From the NCBI GenBank assembly GCA_041663805.1, contig JBAYMA010000001.1, positions 1 through 27,799 on the forward strand: DNA of 27,799 nucleotides, written 5' to 3'. The position numbers were made by a program, and so were the translations under genes. The stretch comes from Candidatus Shapirobacteria bacterium (GTDB taxonomy: Bacteria; Patescibacteriota; Microgenomatia; UBA12405). Of the stretch, positions 17,381-19,365 are shown in pieces (the first letter of the stretch is position 1; each line of letters starts with the position of its first letter). Under the pieces are notes generated by a model. The model was given only the letters and a program-made list of their open reading frames with translations, did not search any database and had not been told where the DNA came from.

Positions 17381-19365
17381 TGGTCACTCTTGACTCTATT
17401 AATCTCAAAAATACTTCTCCTGAAAAACTTGGTGAACTTTTGATGGATGCTAAAAAGGCTTACTACCTCGATAGTAAACCAATTATGGATGATCACACCT
17501 ACGATACCCTTGAAGATATTTTACGTAAAATTAACCCTCATCATCGGATTTTTACTAAAGTCGGTAATTCCAATTTCAACACCGGTTTTGATAAAAAAAA
17601 ACATGCTATGGTTATGGGTTCTCAAAATAAAGTCAGTATTTATAATGATTTAGTTCATTATTTTGAATTAAAAGAAAAACTTATTTCAAAAAATAATTCT
17701 TCCCCCTTTCTTCAAGGGGGGATTAGAGGGGGGTTTTGTATTCAACCAAAATGTGATGGCATTTCTTTAGAAATTATTTACCAGAATGGTGAACTTGTTG
17801 AAGCCGTTACCCGAGGCGATGGTGAGATAGGGGATGTCATTACTCAAAATGTGGTTAAGATGAAAAACACAGTCCTGAGTTTATCGAATAATTTCACTGG
17901 TTCTGTCCGTTGTGAAATTGTGATGTTAGAAACAGATTTTCAAAAACTAAATCAGATTCCTGATGAAAAATATTCTAATTCCAGAAATGCAACTTCCGGC
18001 ATTTCTCAGCGTCTCGATAGTAAATACTCTGAACTCTGCAGTCTTTATACTGTTGATATTTTTTCATCTACTCAAAATTTTGAAACCGAAGTCGAAAAAA
18101 TAAATTATTTAAAAAAACACAAATTTACCACCGTCGAAAATCTTCACTGTTCTAATTTTGAAGAAATCGAAAATATTTATCAAAAATATTTAACTAAAAA
18201 AAGAAAAGATTATCCTTTTGAAATTGATGGTTTAGTTATCAAAATAAATAATTTAAAATTACAACATCAACTCGGTTCCAAAAACAATCGCCCCAAAGGT
18301 CAAGTCGCCTACAAATTTCCCGCCCGTTCCAGTCAAACTCGAATTATCAATATCAATTGGCAAGTCGGACCGATGGGGACAATTACTCCAGTGGCTCAAG
18401 TCGACCCTATCGAAATTTCTGGAGCTGTAATTACTTTTGCTTCCTTAGCTAACTACGATTTAATTAAAGAAAAAAATATTAATATTGACGATATTATTGA
18501 AATCCAAAGAAGAGGGGATGTTATCCCTCATATTGAAAAAGTTATTACCAAAGTTACCGATGGTCATATTATTGCCCCTGAATTTTGTCCTTCCTGTAAA
18601 ACCAAATTAATTATTGACAATAAATTTTTACGTTGTCCCAATATTAAAAATTGTCCCGATCAAATTTTAGGTTCTCTCAAATTATTTTGCGACACTTTAG
18701 AAATTAAAGGCATTTCTGATAAAACTATTGCTAAACTTTATCAAGTAAAACTTCTTCGTCTTCCTGGAGATTTTTATAATCTTAAAGTTGTTGATTTTGA
18801 AAATCTTTTTGGTCTTGGTAAAAAATCAGGTACTAATATCATTAATGAAATCCAAAATAAAAGAAAACTTTCTCTAAAACAAATTTTAGATGCCTCAATT
18901 ATTCCAAATTTCAGTTCTCAAAGAATTATTCAAATTATTAATGCGGGATTTGATACCTCAGATAAAATCTTAAACATCACTATTGACCAATTAAAATCCT
19001 TAGATGGAATTCAAATCACTTTAGCTCAAAAAATCTATCAAGGAATTCAAGATCGAAAAGATTTTATCGAATCAATATTATTACAAACAACTCTCAAAAA
19101 AACTAATTCATCTAATAAACTTAAAAACCTCACTTTTGCTATCACTGGTGCTCTTAATCAACCTCGAAAAGAAATTGAAGATCAAATAATTTCTCTCGGT
19201 GGTAAGATTGCCAGTTCGGTTACATCAAATACTTCTTATTTAATTACTAACCTACCTGCCGGCAGGCACGGTGAAACAAACTCTGATTCTAATAAATTTA
19301 CTTCTGCCAAAAAGTTAGGTATAAAAATCATTTCTGAAGAAGAGTTTGCTAAATTAGCAATCTAA
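17380..19365 (+). CDS. ligA: NAD-dependent DNA ligase
   Basis: KCDG (KxDG), TRGDG, EIDGLVIK, AYKF, VGPMG.ITP, RRGDVIP, C-x2-C-x12-C-x5-C zinc finger, HhH repeats, C-terminal BRCT. Confidence 0.97.
   Translation: MVTLDSINLKNTSPEKLGELLMDAKKAYYLDSKPIMDDHTYDTLEDILRKINPHHRIFTKVGNSNFNTGFDKKKHAMVMGSQNKVSIYNDLVHYFELKEKLISKNNSSPFLQGGIRGGFCIQPKCDGISLEIIYQNGELVEAVTRGDGEIGDVITQNVVKMKNTVLSLSNNFTGSVRCEIVMLETDFQKLNQIPDEKYSNSRNATSGISQRLDSKYSELCSLYTVDIFSSTQNFETEVEKINYLKKHKFTTVENLHCSNFEEIENIYQKYLTKKRKDYPFEIDGLVIKINNLKLQHQLGSKNNRPKGQVAYKFPARSSQTRIININWQVGPMGTITPVAQVDPIEISGAVITFASLANYDLIKEKNINIDDIIEIQRRGDVIPHIEKVITKVTDGHIIAPEFCPSCKTKLIIDNKFLRCPNIKNCPDQILGSLKLFCDTLEIKGISDKTIAKLYQVKLLRLPGDFYNLKVVDFENLFGLGKKSGTNIINEIQNKRKLSLKQILDASIIPNFSSQRIIQIINAGFDTSDKILNITIDQLKSLDGIQITLAQKIYQGIQDRKDFIESILLQTTLKKTNSSNKLKNLTFAITGALNQPRKEIEDQIISLGGKIASSVTSNTSYLITNLPAGRHGETNSDSNKFTSAKKLGIKIISEEEFAKLAI
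17701..17733 (+). repeat. 33-bp GC-rich hairpin element in frame in ligA (SPFLQGGIRGG)
   Basis: ccccctt/aaggggg stem with 5-nt loop; 20 of 33 bases G/C; lies six codons before the catalytic Lys. Confidence 0.75.
19251..19271 (+). repeat. 21-bp palindromic element in frame in the ligA BRCT domain (LPAGRHG)
   Basis: cctacctgccggcaggcacgg with perfect 12-bp palindrome cctgccggcagg (19255-19266); 16 of 21 bases G/C; deleting it keeps the frame. Confidence 0.8.

Follow-up and report, generated by a model that had tools for sequence, protein, structure and literature searches.

A stretch of 27,799 nucleotides (nt) from Candidatus Shapirobacteria (GCA_041663805.1, contig JBAYMA010000001.1), the whole of which we call the window, carries a gene for the NAD-dependent DNA ligase LigA, and in the part of this gene that encodes the BRCT region lies a GC-rich palindromic insert, CCTACCTGCCGGCAGGCACGG. 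The question raised by this locus is what the insert is and how it came to lie in frame in an essential gene. Our answer, to which we give a probability of about 0.7, is that the insert is a solo copy, now in decay, of a miniature mobile hairpin repeat, that it reflects three independent insertions into LigA within the genus, and that a mini GIY-YIG nuclease is the likeliest mobiliser. That window positions 19251-19271 are a mobile insert is very probable. The part given to the nuclease is proposed by analogy with the Ssn nucleases and is tentative, somewhat short of even odds. The genome that holds the window is called G000 (570 kb in 74 contigs, 29.9% GC, 85% complete); its congeners are numbered in the same way, and loci examined carry the letter L.

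Positions 19243-19278 read att act aac CTA CCT GCC GGC AGG CAC GGT gaa aca, and the translation of 19249-19275 is N-LPAGRHG-E. The palindromic core CCTGCCGGCAGG finds no other match in the window even when one mismatch is allowed (0.01 expected from shuffles). Because the genome is only 29.9% GC, the insert, with 76% GC, forms a sharp compositional island. The window holds three GC-rich palindromes with arms of at least 6 nt; two are in LigA and the third is within a tRNA-Ala gene. The host open reading frame (ORF) scores 461.3 bits against TIGR00575 (NAD-dependent DNA ligase LigA), for which the cut-off is 444.45. An AlphaFold2 (AF2) model of the 100-amino-acid BRCT piece is of low confidence (mean pLDDT 58.8) and served solely for placing the insert between secondary-structure elements: residues 63-72 of the piece, with pLDDT below 50, fall between a strand at 59-61 and a helix at 77-85. 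The insert therefore probably sits in the loop that follows strand beta-3 of the BRCT domain, probably at the surface.

The LigA gene was compared with that of 37 other genomes of the genus and of relatives in the order, and the site is assembled in 36 genus genomes, including G000. In 33 of these the site is empty, reading YLITN/E (the slash marks the junction) with AAY and GAA contiguous. The other three carry a 21-nt insert at the identical position: G000 (CTACCTGCCGGCAGGCACGGT), G024 (CTGCCTGCCGGCAGGCACGGC, an exact match to the canonical 21-nt form, CCTGCCTGCCGGCAGGCACGG) and G012 (CTGCCTGCCGACAGGCATGGC). Taking 19251-19271 out of the window gives back the N/E junction typical of the 33, and a contig from a soil run, about 92% identical to the window, leaves out exactly 21 nt at 19251, the very interval that the earlier note had named; the junction is ambiguous by one base. 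Two runs, one from groundwater and one from a landfill, contain the filled allele with zero differences; it is therefore no artefact of assembly. The earlier note on this DNA, made from the letters alone, had described a 21-bp element with a perfect core whose deletion leaves a normal-looking BRCT segment, and both statements hold. That note would have given up the idea of a mobile element for a single copy in the genome with LPAGRHG conserved among orthologs; we find two copies and 33 empty orthologs out of 36. Taken together, these comparisons exclude both an assembly artefact and an ancestral LigA feature, and they reveal an exact insertion that varies between close relatives.

The inserts of the three carriers are 81-90% identical to one another. 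Two differences separate the copies of G000 and G024, both from GC to AT: G to A at 19254, inside the 21-mer and the only departure of the window copy from the canonical form, and C to T at 19272, the adjoining base. All four differences from the G024 form among the LigA inserts are in this direction, as expected of decay in a 30%-GC genome, and in G012 the change alters the peptide from G to D. With the insert left out of the alignment, the LigA tree places every carrier as the sister of an insert-free ortholog, with starred support; forcing the carriers to be monophyletic costs 260 log-likelihood units (approximately unbiased test, p=1.2e-29). We looked for a shared recombinant tract in flanks of 60, 90 and 150 nt on either side and found none: at every distance a carrier is nearest to the empty genes of its own relatives, and the other carriers come in only at ranks 2 to 34. 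Four-fold degenerate sites are saturated: the carriers are 42-54% identical there and sisters only 45-57%. On these comparisons, three recent independent insertions followed by decay are favoured over one old insertion and many precise losses. The recurrence at one site has a parallel in a hydrolase-like gene, in which LPAGRQV stands at the same position in G024 and G009, whose genes are 69% identical there; it is absent from that position in all 26 other congeners. In further species the loop of this gene is occupied by other GC-rich inserts.

The insert belongs to a family. The 12-nt core occurs twice in G000, and the second copy, at G000:C3:3955-3974, is a perfect 20-nt palindrome, CCTGCCTGCCGGCAGGCAGG. 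Across 38 congeners the core is found 38 times in 14 genomes, with 0-10 copies per genome, and the reversed control is found 0 times; the three LigA carriers hold 2 (G000), 7 and 10 (G024) copies. In a collection of species-representative genomes, at least 120 contigs, under more than 20 phylum labels, contain the exact 20-mer; chance alone would give about 0.5 occurrences in 596 Gb (our own arithmetic, assuming equal base frequencies). Among the contigs listed, the NCBI labels include 38 Bacteroidota, many lineages of the candidate phyla radiation (CPR), Omnitrophota, Planctomycetota, Nitrospirota and others. Cultured holders are Winogradskyella, Flagellimonas, Flavivirga and Longitalea (Flavobacteriia and Chitinophagia), and 35 viral contigs carry the exact 20-mer as well. 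Identity across phyla is thus directly visible by comparison of the copies. One contig of 31% GC labelled as uncultured Gammaproteobacteria (L169) has an insert in GatB in the same context, LKIETDDLPAGRQVVYTPL, as congener G012. This label looks wrong, and some of the Pseudomonadota in the phylum tally may be CPR bins. Much of this had been anticipated: the earlier note took the element to be multi-copy and mobile, named a 20-mer of this kind, which proves real and widespread, and stated that peptides of the LPAGRQ and PACRQAG type recur in CPR bacteria and Bacteroidota, all of which the copies in the genus, the filled and empty sites and the wider collection bear out. Our full-text searches on the sequence, on the peptides and on the combination of GIY-YIG, tRNA gene, palindrome and Patescibacteria returned no published description of the 20/21-nt repeat.

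The LigA copies are not the 20-mer itself. They have 21 nt, the right arm being longer by one base (..GGCAGGCA-C-GG). This exact 21-mer is found in at least 120 metagenome contigs; elsewhere in the genus it is found in UvrB and at one other locus of G024, and in G044. In 400 sampled genomes of the phylum it occurs in 4, with five copies, three of them in ORFs. Because the 21-mer recurs at unrelated loci and in metagenomes, it is a lineage of its own that breeds true and not the product of local repair of a reading frame. At two other loci (L043 on G010:C2 and L044 on G052:C4) the CCTGCC palindrome is nested in an inverted repeat, gtcccga...agggac, and that repeat is in turn enclosed by a CCCTTT..AAAGGG hairpin. 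Such nesting suggests insertion into the loops of hairpins that may already have been there.

Copies were counted as coding when the frame stays open for at least 60 codons on both sides. By this measure 16 of the 125 exact 20-mers of the wide sample are coding, as are 7 of the 25 from the genus. Coding copies are a minority although the genomes are mostly coding, and most copies lie in non-coding DNA, with pseudo-tRNA fragments among their sites. The coding 20-mers use all three frames (PACRQAG, LPAGRQ and CLPAGR), none of which contains a stop codon. Genes that host the repeat, in one form or the other, include LigA, UvrB, GatB, membrane glycosyltransferases and a dihydrouridine synthase. 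Coding 20-mers that can be set against an empty ortholog come with one extra base; in a membrane protein, for example, the 20-mer plus G reads PACRQAG. For the 21-mer the share of copies within ORFs is about threefold that of the 20-mer: among copies with flanks of at least 300 nt, 42 of 94 against 14 of 103 (Fisher p=1.5e-6), and in the low-GC subset, in which spurious ORFs are rare, 19 of 49 against 5 of 62 (p=1.4e-4), the two sets being drawn from two different collections. Within the genus alone the counts, though small, agree with this (3 of 5 copies of the 21-mer, 7 of 25 of the 20-mer), as do the 3 of 5 copies of the 21-mer in the phylum sample. Depending on form and sample, 14 to 45% of copies are in ORFs. 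By this comparison the two forms appear to differ in their success within genes. The test suggested in the earlier note, for a bias of coding copies toward lengths divisible by three, therefore has a positive answer, since the 21-mer is over-represented in ORFs. The broader picture of a codon-multiple element that adds peptides to proteins fits the 21-nt lineage and the coding copies; it does not fit the basic 20-nt element, which is not a multiple of a codon, nor the non-coding majority.

tRNA genes are a second kind of landing place. In the genus, 10 of 25 copies lie within 300 nt of a tRNA gene, compared with 2.8 expected for random positions in the same loci, and in the wide sample 15 of 125 do so, compared with 3.9. 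Pseudo-tRNA fragments carry exact 20-nt insertions, which show no target duplication when set against neighbouring intact genes (tRNA-Thr, tRNA-Leu and tRNA-Lys). In G000 itself (C3:3923-4023) the arrangement is GCCCGGA/20-mer/TAGCTCAG, between positions 7 and 8 of a 5' tRNA-Thr(GGT) fragment that lies 11 nt upstream of the intact gene. Other genomes show GGCAGA/20-mer/CGCGCAC (tRNA-Leu), GGTAGA/20-mer/GCAGCGG (tRNA-Lys) and TTCGA/20-mer/TTCC (T-loop). All these positions lie within the unpaired regions of the cloverleaf or border on them, and the preceding base is nearly always an A. At the pseudo-tRNA-Leu site GGCAGA/CGCGCAC, different hairpins are found in different genomes. In arrays of pseudo-tRNA-Glu and pseudo-tRNA-Leu (L255 on G041:C6 and L252 on G024:C14), the anticodon arm is replaced as a whole by a TCCGCC-NNN-GGCGGA hairpin.

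Some tRNA-linked copies are part of a cassette. Its order is a 5' tRNA fragment with the hairpin, a short spacer, an ORF of 80-95 amino acids encoding a GIY-YIG protein, and an intact tRNA gene, and it is present in G007, G020, a WWE3 genome and a Chitinophagales genome. In the first three the hairpin is 16-20 nt upstream of the ORF; in the Chitinophagales genome (L183) it is just upstream of the likely start, and in G012 it lies 10 nt downstream of the ORF. The tRNA-Thr fragment of G000 has no nuclease ORF and looks like a remnant of such a cassette. In profile searches the mini GIY-YIG proteins match only Pfam PF01541, and their best solved relatives are the UPF0213 structures 1YWL and 1ZG2 (E about 1e-4). 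The genus has about 100 small GIY-YIG genes. A tree of 53 of them has several clades, each with its own adjacent hairpin, and a conserved, presumably housekeeping, clade with none. We call B-type the nucleases of the type adjoining the CCTGCC hairpin, at least 53% identical to the G007 ORF (L040:1533-1784), which is identical in G020; they are found in six genomes. The palindrome is present in all six, compared with 8 of the 32 others (p=0.001, and p=0.025 after dropping three genomes in which adjacency had defined the type), and the number of small GIY-YIG genes correlates with that of palindromes (rho=0.54), in genome-level statistics that ignore phylogeny, genome size and overall mobile-element load. 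Within the genus, 4-5 of the 38 copies sit with a mini GIY-YIG cassette. Of the mobilisers suggested by the earlier note, the GIY-YIG nuclease thus has circumstantial backing from cassettes and co-occurrence, and the HUH type has none.

The identity of junction and form at the three filled LigA sites could be explained in other ways than by repeated insertion. An insert ancestral to the genus might have been lost again and again by precise excision, leaving three filled sites as relics. Single-stranded hairpin elements such as IS200/IS605 do excise precisely, and the odd 21-nt form and the junction shared by the three copies would be inherited. Since every carrier is the sister of an empty ortholog, this history requires several losses, each of them independent and perfectly precise. 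A neutral insert of such age would also be expected to be scrambled by now, whereas the inserts are much alike beside synonymous sites that are only 42-54% identical, differ from the canonical 21-mer by GC-to-AT changes only, and share it with at least 120 unrelated metagenome contigs; we consider such losses improbable. The junction and form common to three species would equally follow if one insertion had passed from congener to congener through homologous recombination over very short patches, perhaps following DNA uptake, an ability attributed to CPR bacteria. The flanks keep each carrier with its own empty relatives at all three distances, in a test that reaches patches of about 40 nt or more, and this route too has little probability. 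It might also be supposed that the seven residues, or a DNA or RNA hairpin, are a selected feature of LigA, acting as a regulatory structure or as an altered BRCT surface. The reading frame is kept and the insert is probably in a surface loop, if the low-confidence AF2 model is followed. A selected feature should not be missing from 33 of 36 congeners and from the relative that is about 92% identical, nor should its copies decay in ways that break the palindrome and change the peptide, nor should the same sequence turn up in unrelated genes and non-coding DNA. Selection for the insert in LigA is thus extremely unlikely.

If the insert has moved repeatedly, the next question is by what means. 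No dedicated enzyme would be needed if the palindrome spreads through template switching, driven by the hairpin during replication or repair, or if free palindromic oligonucleotides anneal to themselves and are ligated into breaks, with the nearby GIY-YIG genes reflecting a mere shared preference for tRNA-derived, structured or neutral DNA. This would account for the different hairpins at one pseudo-tRNA-Leu site, for palindromes nested in the loops of others, for the scarcity of mini GIY-YIG genes beside copies outside the genus (about 2% of copies) and for the copies of G000 and G045, where no B-type gene was found. It does not readily account for letter-for-letter identity under more than 20 phylum labels, which is hard to keep up without a sequence-specific partner, for the clade-specific hairpins beside mini GIY-YIG genes, or for the co-occurrence of the palindrome with B-type genes; we regard enzyme-free spread as rather unlikely. 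A short GC-rich palindrome, no target duplication and a preferred preceding base are typical of single-strand 'peel and paste' elements, and our element has all of these. It might for this reason be a repetitive extragenic palindromic (REP)-like element moved by a REP-associated tyrosine transposase (RAYT) or another Y1 (HUH) transposase of the IS200-IS605 type. The analogy with 'peel and paste' elements is discussed in PMC11893778. The relevant profile, PF01797, gives strong matches in three genomes only, G018 (0 copies of the repeat), G013 (0) and G042 (1); it has no match in G000, G012 or G045, and in G024, with its 10 copies, only sub-threshold matches of 18 bits. There is also no GTAG-type tag, and the palindrome is perfect. 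As PF01797 does not co-occur with the repeat, we rejected the Y1/HUH transposase as its partner, and a REP-like origin is very improbable.

Several results weigh against the mini GIY-YIG nuclease as mobiliser, or against the reading as a whole, in addition to the neglect of phylogeny in the co-occurrence statistics and the two collections behind the ORF contrast. No B-type gene was found in G000 or G045, which are 82-85% complete and both hold copies. Outside the genus, only about 2% of copies are within 300 nt of a mini GIY-YIG ORF. B-type genes also adjoin TCCGCC..GGCGGA hairpins and the CCTGCC hairpin adjoins at least three types of nuclease, which rules out a strict one-to-one pairing of this hairpin with one nuclease clade. 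With a pairing this loose, the co-location could simply reflect a shared liking for tRNA-derived DNA. The sole mini GIY-YIG gene of G000 (C30:6073-6291) goes with a different hairpin, TCCGCCAGCTGGCGGA. To our knowledge, GIY-YIG enzymes are hydrolytic nucleases and have no strand-transfer activity, so the mechanism has to assume a step of ligation or repair. Three hits at one position of LigA imply specificity, and we found no shared target motif there beyond the preceding A. Nor did the DNA of 26 orthologous LigA sites, folded on both strands, give a conserved structure; the values range from 0 to -7 kcal/mol and are inconsistent, and we therefore rejected a conserved hairpin that would place the LigA site in a loop, like those at tRNA sites. 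It is possible that the tolerance of the protein loop is part of the answer to the recurrence at this position.

The TCCGCCAGCTGGCGGA hairpin has a distribution of its own in G000, where it replaces arms of pseudo-tRNA-Lys and pseudo-tRNA-Tyr copies. At G000:C30:5870-6370 the 3' end of the mini GIY-YIG ORF overlaps the start of an intact tRNA-Lys(CTT) gene, and the ORF is flanked by pseudo-tRNA-Lys copies with hairpins of the TCCGCCAGCTGGCGGA type in place of stem segments. The same type of hairpin is present in a 5' tRNA-Tyr fragment at G000:C13:2875-2899.

With these points in mind, the reading of the LigA insert as a mobile hairpin repeat runs as follows. The comparisons show that the basic element is the 20-nt perfect palindrome and that the LigA copy derives from its 21-nt sub-lineage. 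The element would move as a single-stranded hairpin, inserting exactly, without target duplication and usually after an A, by cut-and-paste or copying through an enzyme that acts in trans. Its preferred landing places would be unpaired regions of structured DNA, such as the loops of tRNA genes. The enzyme would most likely be a mini GIY-YIG nuclease of 80-95 amino acids, UPF0213/Ssn-like and encoded within tRNA genes. Selection would then remove copies from genes except for those that are in frame and located in loops, and the 21-nt sub-lineage could persist inside genes because it is a codon multiple and free of stops in every frame. In LigA, insertion after the Asn codon at the start of the loop has added LPAGRHG; the comparisons indicate that the same site was struck independently and recently in three non-sister species, and that each copy has since drifted from GC to AT. 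The copy in the window is probably a fossil with no function of its own, because no cognate nuclease gene is found in the 85%-complete G000. A bolder picture, possible and in our view doubtful, is that this hairpin is the smallest known self-propagating DNA element, spread across phyla partly by phages, pasted as single-stranded DNA by a mini GIY-YIG nuclease that resides in tRNA genes and acts in trans, with a stop-free 21-nt lineage adapted to essential genes that returns again and again to the same permissive sites and writes loops of the LPAGRQ/LPAGRHG type into proteins throughout the bacterial tree.

Features of the LigA locus (positions in the window)
Feature	Position	Strand	Remarks
NAD-dependent DNA ligase LigA, 661 amino acids	17380..19365	+	frame stays open through the insert
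C-terminal BRCT region of LigA	19063..19362	+	insert between strand YLI and helix FTSAKKLG (ortholog alignment, AF2 model)
21-nt insert CCTACCTGCCGGCAGGCACGG	19251..19271	none	read as a decayed copy of the 21-nt lineage CCTGCCTGCCGGCAGGCACGG; LigA frame reads LPAGRHG
Perfect 12-nt palindromic core CCTGCCGGCAGG	19255..19266	none	hairpin possible in single-stranded DNA or RNA

LigA of this genus has other inserts. At window positions 17702-17720 (residues about 106-118) lies one from a different hairpin family, CCCCCTTTCTTCAAGGGGG followed by attagaGGGGGG, which is read SPFLQGGIRGG; similar inserts, LPLLVKGGDRGG and LPLLVKGEGGGG, are at the same place only in G009 and G006, which are non-sister species. 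The ortholog alignment (L003-L025) contains many further variable in-frame inserts, for example VETHHDASL, VETPRRDVS, NVETPHMASLP, SKLEIRNS and PISATGRSASGGKG, and several of them resemble readings of other GC-rich palindromes, such as the GTAGAGACG...CGTCTCTAC type that is also present at L212. Elsewhere in G000 a GC-rich motif, GGGAGGGTGCCCGCAGGGCGGGTGGG, followed by a run of T occurs four times, at window positions 1450-1466 and at C7:75-100, C7:1543-1569 and C47:158-179; it may be terminator-like or belong to another repeat family.

If our reading is true, mobile DNA of 20-21 nt in more than 20 phylum-level groups sets a lower size limit for a transposable unit, and the copies in LigA, UvrB and GatB are a natural repeated experiment on the insertion of seven residues into surface loops that tolerate them. 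It would also extend the nuclease-hairpin pairing of the Ssn system to a tRNA-targeting cassette in CPR bacteria and Bacteroidota. Close strains can be told apart by the presence or absence of such inserts, which can also mislead gene callers and marker-gene alignments in CPR genomes. The nuclease-hairpin pairs are candidate sequence-specific tools for single-stranded DNA.

The nearest published system is that of the Ssn single-strand nucleases (GIY-YIG, cd10448) with their NTS/SRM hairpin repeats (Chenal et al., Nat Commun 2025, PMC11893778). Ssn nucleases cut single-stranded DNA beside their own flanking hairpin repeats, and the authors likened the Ssn/SRM architecture to an insertion sequence; the published NTS is CGTCATTCCCGCGMAVGCGGGAATCYRG, and tRNA genes are not mentioned in that paper. 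As in Ssn/SRM, a small single-domain GIY-YIG gene is flanked here by a GC-rich hairpin that is also dispersed in the genome, which is not so in G000, and different nuclease clades go with different hairpins. The repeats themselves differ. SRM repeats are about 30 nt long, with oriented non-palindromic flanks, in hundreds of mostly intergenic copies, whereas our element is of 20/21 nt, has a sequence other than the SRM/NTS consensus, is a perfect palindrome in its 20-nt form, has 0-10 copies per genome and is identical across phyla. Unlike Ssn/SRM, the cassettes described here reside in tRNA genes, parts of which are duplicated, and copies of the repeat also occur in frame in essential genes. 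The nucleases match the UPF0213 structures 1YWL and 1ZG2 best.

REP/REPIN sequences with their RAYTs are similar in being short, GC-rich, dispersed, multi-copy palindromes without target duplication, presumably recognised in trans as single-stranded hairpins. They differ in that no RAYT (PF01797) co-occurs with our repeat and no GTAG-type tag is present, and REPs are species-specific, extragenic, imperfect palindromes in hundreds of copies, whereas the 20/21-nt element is cross-phylum, partly intragenic and perfect, with at most 10 copies per genome. It is unlike a miniature inverted-repeat transposable element in that the whole element is a single 20-nt palindrome and its tRNA insertion sites show no duplication. 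The GC clusters of yeast mitochondria and the double-hairpin elements of fungal mitochondria are also short GC-rich mobile palindromes in AT-rich genomes, 30-50 nt long and lineage-restricted. Like our element they are sometimes inside coding or RNA genes and vary in presence between close strains, but they belong to another compartment, have other sequences and lack the link with a GIY-YIG cassette in tRNA genes. Inside genes, the closest likeness is to the Rickettsia palindromic elements (RPE; Ogata et al. 2000), reportedly selfish palindromic DNA that is in frame in housekeeping genes and adds peptides at tolerated surface positions. The in-frame insertions into genes such as LigA, UvrB and GatB recall these elements, which are about 100-150 bp long and restricted to Rickettsia, whereas the element described here has 20-21 nt and crosses phyla. 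In its behaviour the element resembles REP and SRM hairpin repeats, and within genes it resembles an RPE, yet it departs from each of them in the features by which they are defined.

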